Source of the DNA: a virus
Lineage: Duplodnaviria > Heunggongvirae > Uroviricota > Caudoviricetes
DNA: 46,993 bases
Reading direction: 5' to 3' (one strand)
IMG/VR virus record: IMGVR_UViG_2529293060_000009
In this document: piece after piece, positions 2,621 to 44,813 of the stretch
How the letters are laid out: each line of letters begins with the position of its first letter
Numbering within the stretch: position 1 is the first letter of the stretch
Program-made: the position numbers and the translations under genes
Notes under the pieces: model-generated
What the model was told of the DNA's origin: nothing
What the model saw: only the letters and a program-made list of their open reading frames with translations
Databases searched by the model: none

Positions 2621-3211
2621 ATGTCTCAAATTTTTGCTTACTGTCGGATATCAACGCTGGATCAGACCACCGAAAATCAACGCCGGGAAATCGAAAGTGC
2701 AGGTTTTAAAATCAAACCTCAGCAAATAATCGAAGAACACATTAGCGGCTCAGCAGCAACCAGTGAGCGTCCTGGTTTTAACCGGTTGCTTGCTCGCCTG
2801 AAATGTGGTGATCAATTGATTGTGACAAAACTGGATCGCCTTGGTTGTAATGCAATGGATATCAGGAAAACAGTGGAACAACTGACCGAAACAGGTATCA
2901 GAGTGCATTGCTTAGCATTGGGGGGCATTGACCTGACCAGTCCAACAGGAAAAATGATGATGCAAGTAATTTCAGCAGTCGCTGAATTTGAACGAGACCT
3001 TTTACTTGAACGCACTCATTCCGGGATAGTAAGAGCCCGCGGCGCAGGGAAACGTTTTGGTCGACCACCTGTGTTAAATGAAGAACAGAAACAGGCGGTA
3101 TTCGAACGAATTAAGTCAGGTGTAAGTATAAGTGCCATTGCCCGGGAATTCAAAACCTCGCGGCAAACCATTTTAAGAGCCAAAGCAAAACTTCAGACAC
3201 CTGACATATAA
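2621..3211 (+). CDS. pin: Serine recombinase, Pin/Gin/Hin-type DNA invertase
   Basis: 196-aa ORF with N-terminal catalytic serine motif (YCRISTLDQ), resolvase core and C-terminal HTH. Near-identical by recollection to PinQ/PinR/PinE. Confidence 0.9.
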
Positions 3212-3308
3212 AAAATAATCTCGGTGTGAGATGCTTTACGTCTTCCAAGCCCCCTTCCTTGCCGTAAATGGAAAGATACATCTAATTATAGAATTTATAT
3301 GTTTTACC

Positions 3309-34916: not shown

Positions 34917-35966
34917 TTAGGCCAGCACACCAATTGCCAGCGCGCGATCGATAAATCGAAAAATCAGCTCCAGTTGGGAGCCATACTTCTCTTCAAATGC
35001 CACGGTATCCGTATGCAACTCGTCGTGATGCTTTCTGCACAAAGGCAAAACAAAGAGATCATGTGCTTTGGTTCCCATTCCGCCCTGCCCGTGACCAATC
35101 AGATGATGCGGATCGTCGGCTGGCATACCGCAGCAAGCACACGGCTGTATCTTAACCCAGCGTGTGTATTTCTCCTTAACCCACCGGTGACGTTTAGGCA
35201 GCTTCATGAAAGATTCCGGAGACTCTGGATCAACGGTGATGCTTACCACCGTCTTTTCCTGTGATGGGTTTTGTTGCTGGTGGGCGTGAGGCAACGGTGC
35301 AAGATTTTTTGTGCGCTGTTTCAATATGCTGGTGGCGGTCTGCTCTCCCGGTACGATGTCGCTTTCGCGGTACACCGAGCAGATTTTTTCCGCTGGTAAT
35401 CCCAGCGAGCGACGTAATACCGCTTCCGGTAGCGCGTCCGCCAGCTGATTGCGGACCGCCCACCAGGATAATTCAGCCAGAGATAATTCACGCTCCTGCG
35501 TACCGCTTATTGCGTGACCGATGACGTCAATCATCCATGCTGACAGGTTTTGATGAGCAAGTTGCTCGAGTGATTCGGATGTCTGGTCACGCAGCTGGTT
35601 GTCGCAGTGCCAGCACAACACCATTGCGCCGGTACCATATCGGTGAATAACGGTTTCGCTGTGATGATAATCGCCGTGTGGCCACTGGCAGGATTTAATA
35701 TGGCGCAACAGCCAGTCAGACAATGCACCAGCACCACCAGCAGCACGAATTACCCGTGCGTTACTGAAAAACGGCAGCAATGTTTTGTCTTCCACCAGCG
35801 GCTGGCGAACGGCAGGAACGACCCCGGACGGCAGATTACGCATGCTTTTCGGTTCCGGCTCCACCAGTACCCGGGTATTGTGGAATACCGGCATGGATTC
35901 ACGGCCCGGCTTAACGACCACCAGCCCGAGTTCCGGTACCAGAACAGGTCGAAGTAATACCCGCAC
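34917..35966 (-). CDS. DUF968-type protein with C-terminal HNH-like Cys/His cluster (nin-region protein)
   Basis: C-terminal [21 protein letters not shown]...CRKHHDELH. Located immediately upstream of Q as in DLP12-like nin regions. True start may be internal. Confidence 0.55.
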
Positions 35967-35967
35967 G

Positions 35968-36357
35968 TTACCTCCAGAGGCGTTGCTGGAATGTACGGGA
36001 CGGACGCGGTGGGCGTTCGGAGTAAGGCAATCTGACTGAGATTATCCAGTGACGGTAGTCGAGGCTAAGGGCTTTTTTAACCTCGTATCCGCGCCTGCGG
36101 TAACACTGAATTATCCATTCAGCCTGCTCTTCAGTGCATGGTGGATGCTGGAACCAGTCCGATTTGAATGCATGAAAACGCCGTCCGCACCTGCTGGCAA
36201 AGACGGCAGAATCATCAGAATTGTGTAATTTGGTATCGTGCGCCATCGGTTGTCTCTGCTGGCGCAGCAGGTGCCAGTTGTTCAGGCTGGCGTATAAAGT
36301 ATAAATAAACTGGTTCCAGTGTAAAGCCCCTACATTAATGGAATAAAAGTCAAACAA
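35968..36357 (-). CDS. Hypothetical nin-region protein
   Basis: ORF track only. Likely starts at internal Met (MAHDTKLHNSDDSAVF). Confidence 0.35.
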   Translation of the reverse strand: MFDFYSINVGALHWNQFIYTLYASLNNWHLLRQQRQPMAHDTKLHNSDDSAVFASRCGRRFHAFKSDWFQHPPCTEEQAEWIIQCYRRRGYEVKKALSLDYRHWIISVRLPYSERPPRPSRTFQQRLWR

Positions 36358-36609
36358 CAGATTGTTGGGATAAACACAACGCTTATTATTAAAAGCGATT
36401 AGATAAATTAAATTTTAATGTTATGCAATTTTACCAGATCACCATAACATCTCGTTTGAAACCACCAAAACAACAACCATATCAATTTTGATTATGTTAA
36501 AGTGAGTAAATATGGAAAACAACAAATCTGCACATTACGCTCCTTTTTTATCTGTGATACTTTTTGTTTTATGCTGTGTGTGGGCATTATTTTTATAAAA
36601 ATATTTACA

Positions 36610-36636
36610 GATAAAATAAACCCGCCGAAGCGGGTT
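36610..36636 (-). terminator. Rho-independent terminator of the hok transcript
   Basis: Plus strand aacccgccgaagcgggtt preceded by an A/T-rich run; on the minus strand the hairpin is followed by tttattttat. A second 9-bp stem (ggcgaggga/tccctcgcc, 36672..36693) lies between the hok stop and this terminator. Confidence 0.6.
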
Positions 36637-36704
36637 AAGTGCGGGTGCATTGAGGATGCCTGACACATCAGAGGTGGCGAGGGATTTCTCCCTCGCCTGG
36701 TCTC

Positions 36705-36860
36705 TTACTCCTCAGGTTCGTAAGCTGTGAAGACAGCGACCTCCGTCTGGCCGGTTCGGATTCGTACCTCGCAGAGGTCTTTCCTCGTTACCAGTGCCGT
36801 CACTATGACGGTTAAACAGATGACGATCAGGGCGATTAACATCGCCTTTTGCTGCTTCAT
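36705..36860 (-). CDS. hokD: Hok-family type I toxin (HokD/RelF)
   Basis: MKQQKAMLIALIVICLTVIVTALVTRKDLCEVRIRTGQTEVAVFTAYEPEE, identical by recollection to K-12 HokD. Confidence 0.85.
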   Translation of the reverse strand: MKQQKAMLIALIVICLTVIVTALVTRKDLCEVRIRTGQTEVAVFTAYEPEE

Positions 36861-37475
36861 AGCCTGCTTCTCCTTGCCTTTCGGCACGTAAGAGGCTAAC
36901 CTACATGTGTCTAGCATGAAATTGGCCTCAGATTAATGTTAAGCGTCTTGCAGGACGCGTAATGTTAACTGGGGCTTTTCTCTATCTGCCTTTGGTGTTC
37001 ATGCCTGAGGCAGATAGCCTCAAGCACCCGCAGCAATTCTACTTAACTCACGTCACCTCGCCAATATAAAATCAATCAGAAAGGCGATCCGTAAGAACAA
37101 CAGCAAGACAATAAATTGCCATTACAGCCGCAATAGCTAGCGCACATTTGAGAACCAGCACGACAACCTCCTGTATTGGACGTACACCAGTCCTGATAAA
37201 TATGAGGCTGTCTCATCATTGATTCAATATAACTATTGGGTATAGTTTCTGTGATTTTGTTCTGTAGAAATGGAACACAACAACCAGTCTCCACCAGCAC
37301 TTCTTTAAATACGCCAAGTCCGACGCAAGCTAACCTTCTAGTCCGCTTTGAGCGAACTGTGGAAGCTCGCAAATGTTGTTACATCTGATGAAGGCATTAC
37401 TCAAAGGAGGGGATAGTAGTCAACGTGGAGCAGGCCATGTTAGTATTTTTATACAATTCGACTAAGGGAAAAACA

Positions 37476-38345
37476 ATGAGGCTTTACATAATAGGAAATG
37501 GATTTGACATGCGTCATGGCTTACCAACAGGATACAAGCACTTTAAGTCGTATGTAGAAAAAAATGACCAAGATCTATATGACGCGATAGAAGAATACAT
37601 TCCTGCTGGGGACGAGTGGAATGAGTTAGAAAATGCTTTAGGTGAAATTGATTATGAGCTTATCCTTCAAAACAGTGAGATATTTTTGGCTTCATACAAT
37701 ACCGATGATTGGAGCGATGCTTATCATCACGATTACCAATATGAAGTAAATAAAATCACACAAATGCTGTCAGCTCGTTTGAAGGAGCAATTCGCTGATT
37801 GGGTTAAAGGGATTAACATAGCCGATGCTTACAATCCTAAGCAATACATCCCGCCCATACCAAGAGAAAGCATCTATTTTTCATTTAATTATACAAATAC
37901 CTTGCAGCAGATCTATGCCGTTCCAGACGAGCAAATCATACATATTCACGGCAATTGTAGTTACGATGACGATCTCATACTTGGTCATAGTTTTAGGGTG
38001 GAAAAGTCACTAAATCCATATATAGGACCGGATCAAGATACAAGAATAGCAGAGGCATACGACAGAATAAACGAATACTTCGGTAATACATTCAAGCCCA
38101 GCGAAGACATAATTAAAGAAGAAAACGTTTTTTTCTCATCGCTTAAAAATGTGGACGAGGTCATCGTTTTAGGCCACTCGCTCGCCGAAGTTGACGGTGA
38201 ATACTTTACTGAAATAAATAAAAGCATCCAAGAAAATGCTCGATGGATAGTTGCTTTATATAGAGGTGAGAAAAAATCAGGCAGTTTAGAAGATTATGGT
38301 ATCAGAGGCTCAAATATTTCTTACGTACAGTATGAAGATATCTGA
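37476..38345 (+). CDS. AbiH-like abortive-infection family protein (N-terminal IIGNGFD motif)
   Basis: 290-aa low-GC ORF beginning MRLYIIGNGFDMRHGLPTGYKHFKSY, the motif I associate with the Pfam AbiH family. Good RBS (aagggaaaaacaATG). First gene of a two-gene cassette on the opposite strand from its neighbours. Confidence 0.5.
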   Translation: MRLYIIGNGFDMRHGLPTGYKHFKSYVEKNDQDLYDAIEEYIPAGDEWNELENALGEIDYELILQNSEIFLASYNTDDWSDAYHHDYQYEVNKITQMLSARLKEQFADWVKGINIADAYNPKQYIPPIPRESIYFSFNYTNTLQQIYAVPDEQIIHIHGNCSYDDDLILGHSFRVEKSLNPYIGPDQDTRIAEAYDRINEYFGNTFKPSEDIIKEENVFFSSLKNVDEVIVLGHSLAEVDGEYFTEINKSIQENARWIVALYRGEKKSGSLEDYGIRGSNISYVQYEDI

Positions 38346-38428
38346 ATGAGACTTCATATTATAACTATAATTATGTAAAAAAGGCTGGTATTTTATACCT
38401 TGAGGAAAATAGATAAGAGGAATGAGGT

Positions 38429-39826
38429 TTGGTTATGATGAATTATACTGATGAGTCAACTTTTCTTGAAAAGTACAAACCGTTTAGGAAGTTTTGGACA
38501 ATTTTATCACCTCATTATGTATCTTTAATGCATGCACTTGCCAAAATGATAAGGGGAGGGAATCCAATTCAAGAACTACCTTCCAATGATGAGGATTTTC
38601 TTGCAGAGTATGAAACCTGTCTCAAAAATTGGAAAGACTCACAAAAAATCATATCTTTTGAGATTATTATTCGGCTGAGAGATATAAAAAGATTGGAAAC
38701 TGAAAAAAAAGAGCACCATCGAAACAAGGATAAAGAAAATAAAGAAAAGTGTATTGATGAAATAAGTTTAAAAAAATTTGAAATTCTTATTCTTCGCCGT
38801 TGTATTGACTCAATAATTTGGAGCATTCTTGATGAAGAACACTCTAGTTTGCGGCGTTTACCTATTAATGCAAGCAATGACAATCTATCAGAAGATAACA
38901 TAATTGATTCTATGGTCGCAGCCGATCTTATCAACCAGGACAAACACTCCGTAGCGATTGTCTCTGACATGAGCACATTTGTTCATGTGGGAGATTTAGT
39001 CACCTTTAATCTACTGGATGGCTTCCAGCTCGTGGAAGTTAAAACAGGTGAAAAGAATAATGAGCTTTATGAAGCTGCTGAATTTTCTGTTATCTCAGAA
39101 TGTCCGCACTTTGAAGAAAACTTCATTAACAATATGCCTGATAATGATGTTAAGCAATTTAATCGCATAAAAAGGCAAATCATTCGTGGCATGAATGTTC
39201 TGGAGGCGATTAATACTGGCGAGGGCTTTGACAACTTTCATCAGTCTAAAGTTAAAATCAATGAGATAGATCATCCGTCTGAATTTTATACCCACCGCTT
39301 AGTTAAAATGTGGGAGATTATTCGCGGAGGAAAAAATTGGGCAATTGATACTATTGATGAATGTTTGTTCTTAGGTATGTACCGTGATTCTGAAATGGGC
39401 TTTGTTGCCTTCAATGGATGGATGGATAGTCTCGGTATAAAAAGCCCTGTTGTGAATATAAATGATTCATTCTTTGACCCTTTGTCTCGACCATTTATGA
39501 GTTTGCATCTGCCAACTGAAATGCTCTCCGATCTCATGTCGGGACAAATAATCATCGTCATGTGTTTTGACAATGAACTTTTTTTTCACCGTGCTAACAA
39601 AACGTACCCGGGTTTATATCTCCTTAGCGATGCAGCAAGAACAAAGCAGCCATTAGAAAATATTCTTCGTGTTGGTTCACAAGGGATAGCTTCTTACGTA
39701 GATGGGAATACCAGCTTTTTAGGTAATGGTATTGAATCCCGTATCCTTTTCGATCAGCAACGACCCGACAACATTATTGAGTGGAGCTATGCTAGAAGCG
39801 ATCTCAAAAAGCAACATGAAGCATAA
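38429..39826 (+). CDS. Hypothetical 465-aa protein with a PD-(D/E)xK-like nuclease motif, partner of the AbiH-like gene
   Basis: Low-GC ORF 83 bp downstream of the AbiH-like gene, with RBS. Central segment ..SVAIVSDMSTFVHVGDLVTFNLLDGFQLVEVKTG.. fits the D...(D/E)xK pattern of restriction-type nucleases. Confidence 0.4.
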   Translation: MVMMNYTDESTFLEKYKPFRKFWTILSPHYVSLMHALAKMIRGGNPIQELPSNDEDFLAEYETCLKNWKDSQKIISFEIIIRLRDIKRLETEKKEHHRNKDKENKEKCIDEISLKKFEILILRRCIDSIIWSILDEEHSSLRRLPINASNDNLSEDNIIDSMVAADLINQDKHSVAIVSDMSTFVHVGDLVTFNLLDGFQLVEVKTGEKNNELYEAAEFSVISECPHFEENFINNMPDNDVKQFNRIKRQIIRGMNVLEAINTGEGFDNFHQSKVKINEIDHPSEFYTHRLVKMWEIIRGGKNWAIDTIDECLFLGMYRDSEMGFVAFNGWMDSLGIKSPVVNINDSFFDPLSRPFMSLHLPTEMLSDLMSGQIIIVMCFDNELFFHRANKTYPGLYLLSDAARTKQPLENILRVGSQGIASYVDGNTSFLGNGIESRILFDQQRPDNIIEWSYARSDLKKQHEA

Positions 39827-40088
39827 GCCGTTGGATGGGATTTCCCATGAATTGCCATGGATAATCTAGACACTTCGAGCCGTTGATAATGTTGATTTTC
39901 GTATTCTGTCGGTGGAGTATCCCGAAAGGTATAGAGCAAAACCTGGAGAAAACACACAGCATCCCATTTTAATCTTTAACTCTGACCTTCCATAATGTCC
40001 GCTGTTGGCACAAAGCGGACAACCACGCTAGCTCTACCCTGTGCCACAAAATGTCAATTTGCATCTGAACTAATGCACTTTAATCTCG

Positions 40089-40511
40089 TCACTTCAATAA
40101 ATACCGAACATCCCCCTGATAAAACGACAATATGCGCTGCATAACTTCGCTTTTACGACACTCAGTACAAATCATATTATGACGCCTGTCGTAACGACGT
40201 ATTCCTCCATCAGGTAATGACCAGATAAGGTCCGGATCAACCGCAGATGGTTTCTTCAGCTTTGCCCTTGAGAGCTTTTTACGGGCATTTTGCCAGTCCT
40301 TACGCGCCTGTTCAGACGGGAATAACCCGTAACCAGAGTTGTATACATCGCCACTGGCAACCAGCTCTCTGGCCAGAACGTTCATCATATATTTTGTTGC
40401 CCCAGTTTTAGTTTCCAGTTGTCTTAACGTCTCGCGCCCACTCTGGCGTACGAGTTCAACAACCTGCCCTTTAATTTTTTCCCGCTCTTCTTGTGTAAAA
40501 ACTTTTGCCAC
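40089..40511 (-). CDS. Hypothetical early-region protein (possible DNA-binding protein with C-terminal Cys pair)
   Basis: 140-aa basic ORF directly downstream of the replication initiator gene. Confidence 0.4.
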   Translation of the reverse strand: MAKVFTQEEREKIKGQVVELVRQSGRETLRQLETKTGATKYMMNVLARELVASGDVYNSGYGLFPSEQARKDWQNARKKLSRAKLKKPSAVDPDLIWSLPDGGIRRYDRRHNMICTECRKSEVMQRILSFYQGDVRYLLK

Positions 40512-40551
40512 AAGCCCTCCTGAAAATTACCTCATGACCAGAAATTAACAC

Positions 40552-41628
40552 TTACCCCCTGAAGCCCGGCGGAATTTCGTTATCCGGTTCAGAAATATGA
40601 TTCACACAACGCTGGTTGTTCGTGCCGCTTACCGGGAGCAACCAGGGGTTCTCAAAATTCCGGTCCGGTCCAAAAAACGTCGTCGCTCGCTGAACAAATT
40701 CCGTTCCCGTTTTCCCGGTAGCCGCCAAGTATCTTGCGTAACGCCTCACGCCATCCAGCATGGCCTCTGGTGGCACCCCCTCGCGTAATCTGGCCTTCCA
40801 GGCACTGAAAGCGGATTTCTTCGGGTTTGCTCCGGCACGCAACGGGTACTCCCGCCAGACCTGTTCGAACACATCCGGATAATCCACTCGTCCCACAGAC
40901 TGCCCGGTGTTTTCCGGGACTACCCGATCGGCTTCCCGCTGAATGGCGGAATCGGCTTCGGGCTGCTGCAGTTGGTGTGATTGCTCCGGCCTTGCGGTCA
41001 TCACCTGCTGCACAGCGCCCGAATCGGCTTTCAGCGCATACGCTGAATCGGCTTCCGGTGTCGTGCCTGCTGGCTGACCAAGATTGACGGTCTGAACATC
41101 CCCTGCCTGGTTCGTGGCGTTTTTTACGCCATGGACCATAGTGTTTTGATCTTCTTGATCTGTATCTTTATCTGTATCTTTATCTGTCGTGACTCGTCGT
41201 GACATGTGCGTGACATTTCGTGACGCGCCGTGACAATCGCCATTTTGTTCCCGCTTTCTTTCCCTCTCTCGCTGCGCCCTCTTGCGCTCTGCAGGAGATT
41301 TTGCGGTTTGCGAAATATTGCCGTTGTCCTCTTTAAGCACCTGGCGTTTTTCCCATCCAGTGATTAAATCACCATCAAGTACCCGCCCCTGCATCGTCTG
41401 CAAAATTGAATCAATCACCTCTTCTGTCACGTCGAGCGCACTTGCCAAATCTTCTGTCGTGACATCAATGTGACCTCGCGTGACATTTCGTGACGCGCTC
41501 ACCAAGAGGTGGATATACACTGCCATCACTGTTGCAATTGGCTGCCCTGACACCCTGGCAATTGTTCGCCACTTAGGGTCATTTGGCATGTCATGCCATA
41601 ATCTGAGCCAGGCGTTAGCCATACTCAC
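40552..41628 (-). CDS. Replication initiation protein (lambda O analog, YdaU-like) containing internal iteron arrays
   Basis: 358-aa ORF in the O position, downstream of the cro-like and ydaT-like genes. Two clusters of 10-11 bp phased cgtgac repeats lie inside the coding sequence. Confidence 0.6.
   Translation of the reverse strand: MSMANAWLRLWHDMPNDPKWRTIARVSGQPIATVMAVYIHLLVSASRNVTRGHIDVTTEDLASALDVTEEVIDSILQTMQGRVLDGDLITGWEKRQVLKEDNGNISQTAKSPAERKRAQRERERKREQNGDCHGASRNVTHMSRRVTTDKDTDKDTDQEDQNTMVHGVKNATNQAGDVQTVNLGQPAGTTPEADSAYALKADSGAVQQVMTARPEQSHQLQQPEADSAIQREADRVVPENTGQSVGRVDYPDVFEQVWREYPLRAGANPKKSAFSAWKARLREGVPPEAMLDGVRRYARYLAATGKTGTEFVQRATTFFGPDRNFENPWLLPVSGTNNQRCVNHISEPDNEIPPGFRG
41188..41234. 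repeat. Iteron cluster 1: five cgtgac repeats phased at 10-11 bp, preceded by a tandem atctgtatcttt duplication
   Basis: Seen directly: cgtgac at 41188, 41198, 41209, 41219 and 41229. Confidence 0.65.
41451..41493. repeat. Iteron cluster 2: four (c)gtgac repeats phased at 10-11 bp, containing a 21-bp exact copy of part of cluster 1
   Basis: gcgtgacatttcgtgacgcgc occurs at both 41207..41227 and 41473..41493. Confidence 0.65.
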
Positions 41629-41693
41629 CTCTTTTGATACCGAATCTTTTTACTCACAAATTGCCGGAAGTGATCCGGTATGAATATTGCGAG

Positions 41694-42119
41694 TCAATGC
41701 ACAGCCACAATATTTCCTGCAGGGCCACCACGATTCATCTGGTTGAAACCAGCGATCGCCACTGCGACAAAATCATCAGCGTCTCTCACCAGTCGTTCCC
41801 GCGTCTCCACTAGTTCCCGAAAATAGGCTGAGCTATGACTGCGCATTCGGGCCACCAGCAGAGGTGGCATTGCTTTTTCGATAGCTGGTAACAACGCCTG
41901 AATTTTTTTAACCGCATCAGGGGTGTCTTTCTCCACCCAGCGGAAAATTTTCTGAGTATTGCGAGCCAGGGCTTCCGGATGGCTGTCGTCATACAGTTCC
42001 GGGAACGTCATTCCCAGCTCGAAATACGCTTTGGTAATTTTCGCAGCCGGTACTTTTTCGCCGTCCGGATGCGCCCAGGCATTCATCGCCATGCGGATGT
42101 GTTCATGCTTGATTTTCAT
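41694..42119 (-). CDS. YdaT-like protein (Rac-type early gene)
   Basis: 141-aa ORF beginning MKIKHEHI, like my recollection of K-12 Rac YdaT (140 aa). Position cro-like, ydaT-like, replication gene. Confidence 0.55.
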   Translation of the reverse strand: MKIKHEHIRMAMNAWAHPDGEKVPAAKITKAYFELGMTFPELYDDSHPEALARNTQKIFRWVEKDTPDAVKKIQALLPAIEKAMPPLLVARMRSHSSAYFRELVETRERLVRDADDFVAVAIAGFNQMNRGGPAGNIVAVH

Positions 42120-42370
42120 GAATCAACTCCCATCAGCTTTTTCGTAGTAGTTTTATTCCTGCCAATAGTTAAAATTGCATCGGCAGAAAATAATCCGTTT
42201 GATGCAAGAGCGATTTTTTCAGCGTAATTTGTTTCGCCGGTATATTCTGTGCGAGGCAATTTTCCGTTATCCATCCATTTATAGATTGCTCTTTGGCTGA
42301 CACCACAAACGTCGGCCACAACAGCAACGCGAACAGTTTTGATTACATCTTCAAGTGTTTTCTGGTTCAT
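42116..42370 (-). CDS. Cro/YdaS/DicC-position small HTH regulator
   Basis: 84-aa protein from internal Met with a strong RBS (gagggtgat before ATG) and HTH segment (..VCGVSQRAIYKWMDNGKLP..). Divergent from the repressor gene. Confidence 0.65.
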   Translation of the reverse strand: MNQKTLEDVIKTVRVAVVADVCGVSQRAIYKWMDNGKLPRTEYTGETNYAEKIALASNGLFSADAILTIGRNKTTTKKLMGVDS

Positions 42371-42449
42371 ATCACCCTCACAATGTGAACTTTGAGTACA
42401 TGCCATAACAGAACTGACAGTACATTCAAGAGCGAATATCATTGAACTT

Positions 42450-42869
42450 ATGGTTCATGAAGATAAAGCGCGTAAAGAGTTCGCCAGTAGGCTTGCGCTA
42501 GCCTGTGAAAACGCTGGTTATGAACAACATGGAAGGCAGGCAGAAATTGCCCGTCGAATGAAATTAACACCAAAAGCGGTTAGCAAATGGTTTAATGGCG
42601 AAACAATTCCTCGCCGGGAGAAATTAAGGGAATTAGCAACACTAATAGGAACAACACCAACCTATCTTTTGGGAGAGGATACAGAAGAAAGTGGACAGGT
42701 ACGTTTCTATCAGGAGTTAAATCCAAGACAAAAAATCATCATTGACCTTCTGGACGAGCTCCCTGACAGTGAGACAGATGAACTTTTAAAAACTCTTGAA
42801 GAGAAAAAACAGAAGTACAATGCAATTTACGAAGAGTTAGCACGAAAGAAAAAACAAAAAGCCTCTTAA
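42450..42869 (+). CDS. Prophage repressor, XRE-family HTH (DicA/RacR-like)
   Basis: 139-aa ORF with N-terminal HTH (..QAEIARRMKLTPKAVSKWFNGETIP..) and Lys-rich C-terminus. Divergently transcribed from the cro-like gene and followed by the ydfA-dicF-dicB operon. Confidence 0.7.
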   Translation: MVHEDKARKEFASRLALACENAGYEQHGRQAEIARRMKLTPKAVSKWFNGETIPRREKLRELATLIGTTPTYLLGEDTEESGQVRFYQELNPRQKIIIDLLDELPDSETDELLKTLEEKKQKYNAIYEELARKKKQKAS

Positions 42870-43166
42870 ACCAGCATAAATCCGGTAGCGCCTTCCTCCG
42901 GGTTTGTGCTTCACATTATCCCATCTCATTTTTTTACACACAAAATGTACTAAAAGTACTTTACAACAATGAACGCAAAGTACATTATATGCCTGCCACC
43001 CACCCCGCCCCACAGAATGCAGGGCAATACTTCGAGTTACCAGGCAGTGGTCAGGGGTTAAGTAGCCAGCCCGAGGCGTAAGAACATGACGGCAGGGTTC
43101 AACTTTAATAACTATGCAGCAGGTTTTTGTTCCGCTACCCCGGCGTTAAGGGGAAATGAGGTCAGC

Positions 43167-43319
43167 ATGGATACTATCGATCTTGGCAACAGCGAATCTC
43201 CGGTATGTGGCGTGTTCCCCAACCAGGACGGTACGTTCACCGCGATGACATATACCAAAAGCAAAACGTTTAAAACCGAATCTGGCGCGCGTTGCTGGTT
43301 AGCCAGAAACACTGACTGA
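43167..43319 (+). CDS. ydfA: YdfA-like small protein
   Basis: 50-aa protein from internal Met with strong RBS (ggggaaatgagg). Position after the repressor matches ydfA in the K-12 dicB operon. Confidence 0.5.
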   Translation: MDTIDLGNSESPVCGVFPNQDGTFTAMTYTKSKTFKTESGARCWLARNTD

Positions 43320-43500: not shown

Positions 43501-43542
43501 TGAACCGCCCCGGTTTTCCGGGAGAGTGTTTTATCTGTGAAC

Positions 43543-44442
43543 TCAGGCTGCCAGACCACCATTTCCGATGGAAGCGTAATATGCCTTTTCCGCTTCTGCC
43601 GGCGGGATATGACCCAGTCGTTCCAGCAACCGTCGGTTATTGTACCAGTCCACCCACGTCAGTGTGGCCAGTTCCACTTCGGCGCGGTTTTTCCAGCTCT
43701 TACGATGTATCACCTCCGCTTTATAAAGTCCGTTGATGCTCTCCGCCATCGCGTTGTCATATGAGTCGCCTGTGCTGCCGGTTGACGCCAGCAACTCTGC
43801 ATCCTTAAGCCGCTGAGTGTATGCCAGCGACACATATTGTGACCCCTTATCTGAGTGATGGATGGTGCCCGACGGGCGACGGGCCCACAGCGCCTGCTCC
43901 AGTGCATCCAGCACGAACGTCGTTTTCATCGACGATGAGACCCGCCAGCCCACAATGACGCCGGCGAACACATCGATGATGAACGCCGCGTAAGCGAAGC
44001 CCTGCCAGGTGCTCACATACGTGAAGTCAGCCACCCACAGCTGGTCGGGGCGTTCTGCCACGAACTGGCGGTTCACCCGGTCACCCGCAGCGGCTTCTTT
44101 CCGGCTGACTGTGGTGCGGACCTTTTTACCCCGGCGCACACCGGCAAGCCCCATCACCTTCATCAGCCGTTCTACTGTGCACCTGGCCACGGTCACCCCC
44201 TCACGCAACAACTGGCGCCAGACCTTGCGCACACCGTACACGCTGTGGTTTTCATCGTACACGCGCTGTATCTCCGGCTTCAGCAGGTCATCACGCTGTG
44301 CCCGCTGACTGCGTTTATCCGGATGCCGTTGATGCGCACGATGCCGGTAATACGTTGACGGGGCGACAGCCAGCTCGTGGCATACCGGTCCGACCCCGTG
44401 CGCACCACGCAGGGTATCCACCAGAGGCGCTATTTTTTCCAC
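43543..44442 (-). CDS. IS629-like transposase OrfB (copy 2)
   Basis: Same as copy 1 OrfB except [10 protein letters not shown] versus [10 protein letters not shown]. Confidence 0.85.
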
Positions 44443-44756
44443 AGGCGGTCGAACTCCGCCTTCGCAAAATACGCGGAAGCCTGGCGCAGGATATCGTTGC
44501 TGCGGCGCAGTTCGCGGTTTTCACGCTCCAGTTCCTTCAGACGCTGACGTTCAGTGGTGCTCAGTCCGCCGTCACCTGCACCGGCATCGCGCTCATACTG
44601 ACGCAGCCAGGTACGCAGGGTCTCAGGCGTACAGCCGATTTTAGGGGCGATGGAGCTGATGGCCGCCCACTGCGAGTCATAGTCATTCTGGCTTTCGATA
44701 ACCATACGAACGGCCCGCTGACGGACCTCAGGGGAAAAGCGCGTATTTTTAGTCAT
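44430..44756 (-). CDS. IS629-like transposase OrfA (copy 2)
   Basis: Identical to copy 1 OrfA. Confidence 0.85.
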
Positions 44757-44813
44757 CCTGTTTACCTCTCTCTCAAGGAGTTTAGTCTCCAGGATTCCCG
44801 GGGCGATTCAAAC

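Follow-up and report, generated by a model that had tools for sequence, protein, structure and literature searches.

A predicted self-contained hok/mok/sok cassette of the hokD lineage and a neighbouring 28-codon open reading frame in a Qin-like prophage of Escherichia coli

We analyzed the surroundings of a hokD toxin gene in a stretch of viral DNA of 46,993 nucleotides (IMG/VR record IMGVR_UViG_2529293060_000009; Caudoviricetes), here called the window, which represents a Qin-like lambdoid prophage of Escherichia coli. The gene lies in a whole hok/mok/sok type I toxin-antitoxin locus at positions 37064..36610 of the minus strand and, as judged from its sequence, the region very probably is a complete, self-contained cassette of the hokD lineage. 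A preliminary description of this DNA had proposed an autonomous hok/sok locus in place of a relBE-driven relF gene, and this proposal was borne out: the promoter, the mok frame, the Sok promoter and hairpin, the tac/fbi pair and the terminator were all found. The convergent open reading frame (ORF) of 28 codons that had been described together with hokD belongs to a neighbouring module and not to hok, because it occurred without hok within 3 kb in 37 of 128 loci, for example beside iteS or DUF1971.

Elements, folding and distribution of the hok/mok/sok locus

In order to delimit the transcript, we combined the promoter scan, the Rfam match and the terminator scan. The hok promoter agrees with the consensus at 9 of 12 positions, and the leader downstream of it was matched by the Rfam model RF01794 at 37029..36855 on the minus strand, with 119.9 bits against a gathering score of 59 (E=7e-27) and over the entire model (positions 1-157 of 157). 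Transcription would start at G37029, because the model begins at this position, 7 nt past the -10 element. The match ends at the hok AUG; since the 3′ end of the model falls on the hok Shine-Dalgarno sequence and AUG, we read the match as the leader of the sense hok mRNA and Sok as the reverse complement of the central portion of this leader. RF01794, although labelled 'sok antitoxin', in effect models the hok leader, the real Sok RNA being on the opposite strand.

The encoded toxin is HokD, with 82.9 bits to the Pfam family HOK_GEF (PF01848) against a cut-off of 22, and the statement that the stand-alone peptide is the same as in K-12 was correct, the RefSeq protein WP_000813254.1 being found both in K-12 and in the genome of strain MDR_56, which is 100% identical to the window in this region. 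The mok frame begins upstream of hok and then overlaps it in the same frame, and its exact product of 70 amino acids belongs to a 900-member cluster named Hok/Gef family. Neither mok nor Sok had been listed in the preliminary description, which had named a mok-like coupling element as its own test. The RNA structures that it did describe were all recovered: the terminator, consisting of AACCCGCTTCGGCGGGTT followed by a T run; the 9-bp stem just past the hok stop codon (GGCGAGGGA/TCCCTCGCC), which is present in the minimum-free-energy fold; and the 9-bp leader stem formed by ctatctgcc (36982..36990) and ggcagatag (37009..37017), which corresponds to the inner helix of the 5′ tac stem-loop of the Rfam model.

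The structures of the locus are stronger than expected by chance. The 418-nt hok transcript folded at -178.2 kcal/mol, with z=-8.5 relative to dinucleotide shuffles. In the fold of the full-length RNA, nucleotides 1-12 (37029..37018) are paired to 36655..36643 and the mok Shine-Dalgarno sequence is paired to GCCCC at 36975..36971, and these predicted pairings correspond to the closure by tac and fbi and to the sequestration by ucb that are known from the hok mRNA of plasmid R1 (PMC9841398). The tac element was nearly invariant over 41 distinct full-length alleles from the fetched loci, with one base different in one allele, and in fbi the bulged base alone varied; tac/fbi covariation was accordingly absent from this alignment, which speaks neither for nor against the pairing. 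Covariation of tac and fbi among distant hok families is already published.

On the opposite strand, the features of a cis-antisense gene, namely a promoter, a 5′ tail complementary to the target and a terminator hairpin, were all found facing the mok initiation region. The putative Sok RNA is predicted to carry a single-stranded 5′ tail antisense to the mok start, then a long hairpin and a U-rich tail (CUUUUCUC), and its fold reached -30.3 kcal/mol, with z=-5.5 relative to dinucleotide shuffles. We assigned the presumed Sok promoter by its position and by homology to R1, and its -10 element fits the TANNNT rule. The coordinates of these elements are collected in Table 1.

Table 1. Features of the hok/mok/sok locus and of the flanking small ORFs, in window coordinates
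Feature	Position	Strand	Basis or remarks
Conserved 48-nt AT-rich non-coding block, GCTTATTATTAAAAGCGATTAGATAAATTAAATTTTAATGTTATGCAA	36381..36428		Alignments; always 85-92 nt 5′ of the 28-codon ORF
28-codon ORF, MENNKSAHYAPFLSVILFVLCCVWALFL	36512..36598	+	Candidate small membrane protein; outside the hok system
Intrinsic terminator of hok mRNA	36610..36636	-	Terminator scan
Full-length hok mRNA, ~420 nt	36610..37029	-	Putative ends, from promoter, Rfam match and terminator
fbi element, CCUCAAUGCACCC	36643..36655	-	12 bp with tac, one bulged U
9-bp hairpin just past the hok stop codon	36676..36697	-	Minimum-free-energy fold
hok (hokD) toxin gene, 51 amino acids	36705..36860	-	WP_000813254.1
mok frame, 70 codons	36705..36917	-	AUG at 36917, Shine-Dalgarno GAGG 36929..36926; ORF list
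Sok promoter (putative)	36874..36902	+	-35 TTGCCT 36874..36879, 17-nt spacer, -10 TAACCT 36897..36902; read from sequence
Sok antisense RNA, ~70-75 nt	36909..36982	+	Putative ends; reverse complement of the central RF01794 match
ucb-like box GCCCCAG	36969..36975	-	Pairs with mok Shine-Dalgarno; name taken by analogy from plasmid R1 (PMC9841398)
Inner helix of 5′ tac stem-loop	36982..37017	-	RF01794 consensus structure and fold
tac element, GGGUGCUUGAGG, 5′ end of hok mRNA	37018..37029	-	Pairs with 36655..36643 in minimum-free-energy fold
hok promoter	37036..37064	-	-35 TTGGCG 37064..37059, 17-nt spacer, -10 TAGAAT 37041..37036; promoter scan
29-codon ORF, MLVLKCALAIAAVMAIYCLAVVLTDRLSD	37072..37161	-	GTG start, AGGAGG 5 nt upstream; ends 7 nt before hok -35

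To place the cassette among E. coli strains, we counted matches with at least 80% coverage of the query in 5426 complete E. coli genomes. The 174-nt leader (36862..37035) was present in 4269 of them (79%), with a median of 2 copies and up to 10, and the K-12 relE-hokD junction in 1173. The stand-alone cassette is thus not unusual but the majority form in E. coli, and annotated relatives carry the same full cassette beside rem, a methyltransferase, a TPR protein, QueH, or DUF977 directly. The window allele is the commonest of the 41 collected. The main variable stretches among these alleles are 36898..36925, which holds the mok start and, as the 5′ tail of Sok, the site for Sok recognition, and the tac loop, with tac, fbi, the hok Shine-Dalgarno sequence and the coding sequence nearly fixed; this pattern agrees with a divergence in Sok-target specificity between the 2-10 copies that a genome carries.

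The Tyr47 codon of hokD, UAC at 36720..36722 on the minus strand, lies in the context CUUACGAA, which we take to be like the anticodon loop of tRNA-Arg2, the natural substrate of TadA. According to a preprint surveying Hok proteins, A-to-I editing of the hokD mRNA yields the second cysteine (bioRxiv 10.1101/2025.08.07.668861). In the same survey, Hok homologues number in the thousands and are enriched in prophages, and the overexpressed HokD coding sequence is described as toxic; stand-alone hokD is therefore real and well supported, but already known and ordinary.

The elements would act as in plasmid R1, from which the mechanism and the element names (tac, fbi, ucb, mok) are taken (PMC9841398). 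By this homology, the hok promoter would make a stable mRNA of ~420 nt, in which the 5′ tac would bind the 3′ fbi and the mok Shine-Dalgarno sequence would be sequestered, so that the full-length RNA would be neither translated nor bound by Sok. Slow 3′ trimming would remove fbi and let the 5′ end refold, upon which mok would become translatable and hok would be translated by coupling to mok. The unstable Sok RNA from the opposite strand would pair with the mok initiation region and lead to cleavage by RNase III. If the supply of Sok stopped, either by loss of the element or by a shut-off of transcription by an infecting phage, Hok would be made and the inner membrane would be depolarised. When expressed from the chromosome, R1 hok is lethal unless Sok is present (PMC9841398), and R1 hok/sok excludes phage T4 (Pecota and Wood 1996, as reported in a citing paper); abortive infection is on the latter ground a possible role of the cassette, next to prophage retention.

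Some observations weigh against the cassette working in this way. The putative Sok promoter matches the sigma-70 consensus at 7 of 12 positions and, being below the threshold of the promoter scan, was not called. When the mRNA was shortened at its 3′ end, the minimum-free-energy fold was a metastable 5′ hairpin and not the tac/ucb stem, so that the refolding step is drawn from the Rfam consensus structure and from homology; the consensus includes a GGG-GCUU/AAGCCCC stem (tac/ucb), which the hok leader sequence fits. Furthermore, the chromosomal hok loci that were tested gave no post-segregational killing (Pedersen and Gerdes 1999, as summarised in bioRxiv 10.1101/2025.08.07.668861).

These last data lead to the alternative that the cassette is intact but functionally silent in its chromosomal and prophage setting, where it would bring about neither post-segregational killing nor phage exclusion and would persist as a passenger, whether selfish or neutral, of prophage modules that recombine. 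According to the preprint, native chromosomal hokA, hokB and hokC could mediate neither killing nor rifampicin activation, and hok was not enriched beside defence systems (bioRxiv 10.1101/2025.08.07.668861); moreover, the locus is itself shuffled as a module, with sharp junctions at its promoter and terminator. We nevertheless regard silence as rather unlikely in view of the near-invariance of the regulatory elements in the 41 alleles, the presence of the cassette in most genomes, often in several copies, the toxicity of the expressed HokD coding sequence and the lethality of chromosomal R1 hok without Sok. It is improbable that hok is mainly expressed from a longer read-through transcript, coming from the upstream 29-codon ORF or the early-right operon in the manner of relBEF: hok is co-directional with the replication genes, the 29-codon ORF and the nin-side genes, the terminator scan found no terminator between this ORF and the hok promoter save a weak site inside the ORF, and hokD of K-12 is co-transcribed with relBE (PMC3598666), but the 9/12 promoter lies exactly 7 nt 5′ of the conserved start of the Rfam model, a TTGGCA -35 is still supplied in locus L003, where the junction with different upstream DNA falls between -35 and -10, and an extension at the 5′ end would upset the conserved tac/fbi design. 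For the self-contained cassette, which we prefer, the gain is in annotation and not in new biology, because RefSeq covers only the coding sequence of 51 amino acids and labels neither mok nor Sok.

The 28-codon ORF and the conserved block upstream of it

On the left of the hok terminator, a stretch of 328 nt was present in 1185 genomes at 71-100% identity, and no annotated feature was found there. The 28-codon ORF had been given correctly in the preliminary description, with the strand, position and peptide of the ORF list, but had been considered a possible AT-rich artefact. The latter is probably not the case, as the frame is conserved in the manner of a coding sequence. Relatives at only ~72% DNA identity keep the ATG, an AAGGTG Shine-Dalgarno sequence, the frame and the TAA stop codon. 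In order to collect copies without the ascertainment bias that a peptide query would bring, we searched IMG/VR with a non-coding motif (AAATTNNATTTTAATGTTATG) from the conserved block, 86 nt 5′ of the ORF. All of the 113 genuine copies that were retrieved in this way had exactly 28 intact codons. They comprised 19 DNA alleles, in which variable sites were distributed 6:9:17 over the three codon positions (binomial p=0.016); dN/dS, the ratio of nonsynonymous to synonymous substitution rates, was 0.16-0.28 between the two main clades, and among the six frames synonymous changes were most numerous in frame +0, which was also free of stop codons. Across 60 alleles of the module, 74% of the positions in the spacer between block and Shine-Dalgarno sequence were variable and all 10 gap columns fell there, with 39% variable positions and no gaps in the ORF.

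The conserved block may serve as a promoter or operator, or as an RNA element. Block and ORF move as one unit, since in one locus (L101) the homology starts just left of the block. The products of both the 28-codon ORF and the 29-codon ORF on the other side of hok are predicted to form a single hydrophobic helix, with grand average of hydropathy values of 1.2 and 1.7, respectively. These data suggest that the 28-codon ORF is probably a real, translated gene for a small membrane protein, and we lean towards regarding it, together with the 48-nt block, as an unannotated autonomous small-gene module that encodes a single-helix membrane peptide.

Database searches gave no counterpart. Neither small ORF matched any model of Pfam, NCBIfam, PHROG or PADLOC, a match to Lp6.6 (E=0.03) and matches to phrog families (E>0.1) being dismissed as noise, and none of three 28-amino-acid alleles was present, by exact look-up, in a collection of 15 billion proteins. 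The peptide was also not found in the small-ORF supplements of Huecker 2017 and 'The Cryptic Bacterial Microproteome', which are possibly incomplete and concern strains that may lack the module. Four induced prophages among the phage GenBank records matched, and the ORF is annotated in none of them. A scan of genome contigs for the 28-amino-acid ORF returned Escherichia ruysiae and Shigella flexneri only, and the module seems to be confined to prophages of Escherichia and Shigella. No homologues of the small ORFs were found in the Qin region of K-12, and the ORFs are also unrelated to YdfW, Rem and the small DUF3927 protein that this type of prophage carries. In a permissive Rfam scan of the flanks, Phe_leader over the ORF and the terminator (21 bits against 55, E=0.88) and rsmX (23.5 against 56) were attributed to chance. 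The default minimum gene length of Prodigal is 90 nt; at 87 nt with its stop codon the 28-codon ORF falls below this limit, which could explain its absence from databases.

A different interpretation is that the ORF is untranslated and that its conservation reflects a function of the non-coding DNA or RNA, or recent common ancestry. The window allele has a weak Shine-Dalgarno sequence (AAAGTGAG; AAAGTG), the scan called no plus-strand sigma-70 promoter upstream, an ORF this short yields modest statistics (p=0.016 to 0.06), the copies are not phylogenetically independent, and the peptide is missing from the protein collection and from both supplements. Set against this, the 113 copies were retrieved with the block only and yet all keep exactly 28 codons, all gaps are in the spacer, which is also more variable than the ORF, the substitutions favour the stop-free +0 frame at a low dN/dS, most relatives have the better AAGGTG, and the length limit of gene prediction could account for the missing database entries. 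We therefore consider an untranslated ORF rather unlikely and retain the interpretation of a small membrane-protein gene.

On the minus strand, a promoter-like site (TTTCCA-16-CATAAT, 36518..36491) lies over the start of the 28-codon ORF, and a weak terminator-like hairpin (36397..36380) lies ~100 nt downstream of it. The two sites could bound an RNA of ~110 nt antisense to the 5′ region of the ORF. It is a speculation, to which we give little credence, that the module represents a new type-I-toxin-like gene controlled by an antisense RNA, for which these sites would be the candidate signals.

The cargo site and the prophage setting

The segment 36400..37250 is 100% identical to strain MDR_56, where its counterpart is flanked by replication genes (replisome organiser, DUF977) and by DUF968, RusA and Q genes, in a prophage integrated beside rspB. 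Within this Qin-like lambdoid prophage, the hok cassette is situated in the region of the early-right operon.

The 29-codon ORF upstream of the hok promoter was intact in 112 of 123 copies, with variable sites distributed 6:4:14 by codon position (p=0.010), and was also found without hok. It is labelled 'membrane protein' in some older GenBank records, including that of REL606, and is otherwise largely unannotated. The few broken copies carry either a frameshift by a 2-nt deletion or a 5′ truncation by an internal recombination junction (IMG/VR loci L240 and L189/L249), and in both kinds the 3′ half next to the hok promoter is kept.

The cargo between the 29-codon ORF (or DUF977) and the 28-codon ORF varies among loci. 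It consists of hok, AbiH and an uncharacterised protein of 465 amino acids in the window, of relBE in K-12, and elsewhere of IteS, DUF1971, methyltransferases, QueH or a TPR protein. If the module reading of the 28-codon ORF is true, the module would mark the nin-side edge, and the 29-codon membrane ORF the other edge, of a cargo and defence hotspot in Qin-like lambdoid prophages. The two conserved, hydrophobic small ORFs represent a modest annotation gap; they bracket a site at which prophage cargo (hok, AbiH, IteS, relBE, methyltransferases, QueH) is swapped, and could act as landmarks when prophage defence hotspots are mined.

The gene at 37476..38345 on the plus strand belongs to the AbiH abortive-infection family (233 bits in Pfam; AbiH in PADLOC). 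The ORF 3′ of it at 38429..39826 (+), which encodes the 465-amino-acid protein, has no match in Pfam, NCBIfam, PHROG or PADLOC. The two genes are oriented against the prophage early operon and occupy the site that holds relBE/ydfV/flxA in K-12; together they may represent a two-gene defence cargo.

Other Rfam matches in the window were DicF, a cspA-type thermoregulator and two IS3-family frameshift pseudoknots. The latter belong to two IS3-family copies of 1310 bp each (32459..33768 and 43501..44810), which are 99.9% identical, in direct orientation and each provided with an ALIL frameshift pseudoknot. The 9.7-kb segment between them holds RusA, DUF968, hok, AbiH and the replication genes, and the collinear prophage of MDR_56 is alignable only between the two copies (34924..43298).

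Comparison with K-12 relBEF, plasmid R1 and other small prophage genes

The closest known locus is hokD (relF) in the Qin prophage of K-12, which agrees with the window in prophage type and in the chromosomal site beside rspB. Megablast and pairwise alignment confined the homology to 36618..36874, that is, to the hok Shine-Dalgarno sequence (AGGAGAAGCAGGCTATG), hok, the post-stop hairpin, fbi and the terminator. Over these 257 nt the DNA is 98.4% identical (3001..3257 of the K-12 locus L002 against 36618..36874), and the Hok protein is identical. In contrast to the window, K-12 hokD is devoid of the hok promoter, tac, ucb, the mok start and the Sok promoter and gene. In place of the leader it has the 3′ end of relE, which stops 71 nt before hokD; just 14 nt 5′ of the hok ATG are homologous to the window, and fbi and the terminator are kept without the tac partner of the former (an orphan fbi). 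On the other flank K-12 has rem, whereas the window has the 28-codon ORF module. The recombination junctions between the two lie exactly at the hok Shine-Dalgarno sequence and just beyond the terminator.

Conversely, a relBEF-type arrangement is absent from the window: as the preliminary description had noted, relB and relE are missing, the best tblastn match of K-12 RelB and RelE to the window reaching only E=0.02, and the DNA 5′ of the hok Shine-Dalgarno sequence is unrelated to K-12. Because K-12 matches only from the hok Shine-Dalgarno sequence through the terminator, relBEF is the truncated form, in which relBE has taken the place of everything 5′ of this sequence. Pedersen and Gerdes (1999) reportedly described the hokD gene of K-12 as inactivated by a major rearrangement. 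These results correct a view centred on K-12, in that the textbook relBE-relF is a truncated derivative and most E. coli carry the hokD/mok/sok cassette in its apparently autonomous form.

The mechanistic prototype of the cassette is hok/mok/sok (parB) of plasmid R1. The two have in common the gene order, the overlapping mok, a Sok antisense to the mok initiation region, the 5′-3′ closure by tac and fbi, a ucb-like box on the mok Shine-Dalgarno sequence, a hairpin and terminator past hok, and leaders that are described by the same Rfam model. They differ in the toxin, the window Hok being 42% identical to that of R1 over 45 residues (with a manually entered R1 sequence), in the Sok hairpin, which in the window has ~16 nt more than the Rfam consensus, and in their context, a plasmid for R1 and a prophage for the present locus. 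The other chromosomal and prophage hok/sok loci (T1TAdb, 2025-26 Hok diversity survey) are of the same kind, with nothing materially different. As for the 28- and 29-codon ORFs, they resemble small hydrophobic proteins and type I toxins from prophages of E. coli in size (28-29 amino acids), in their single predicted hydrophobic helix and in their prophage location.

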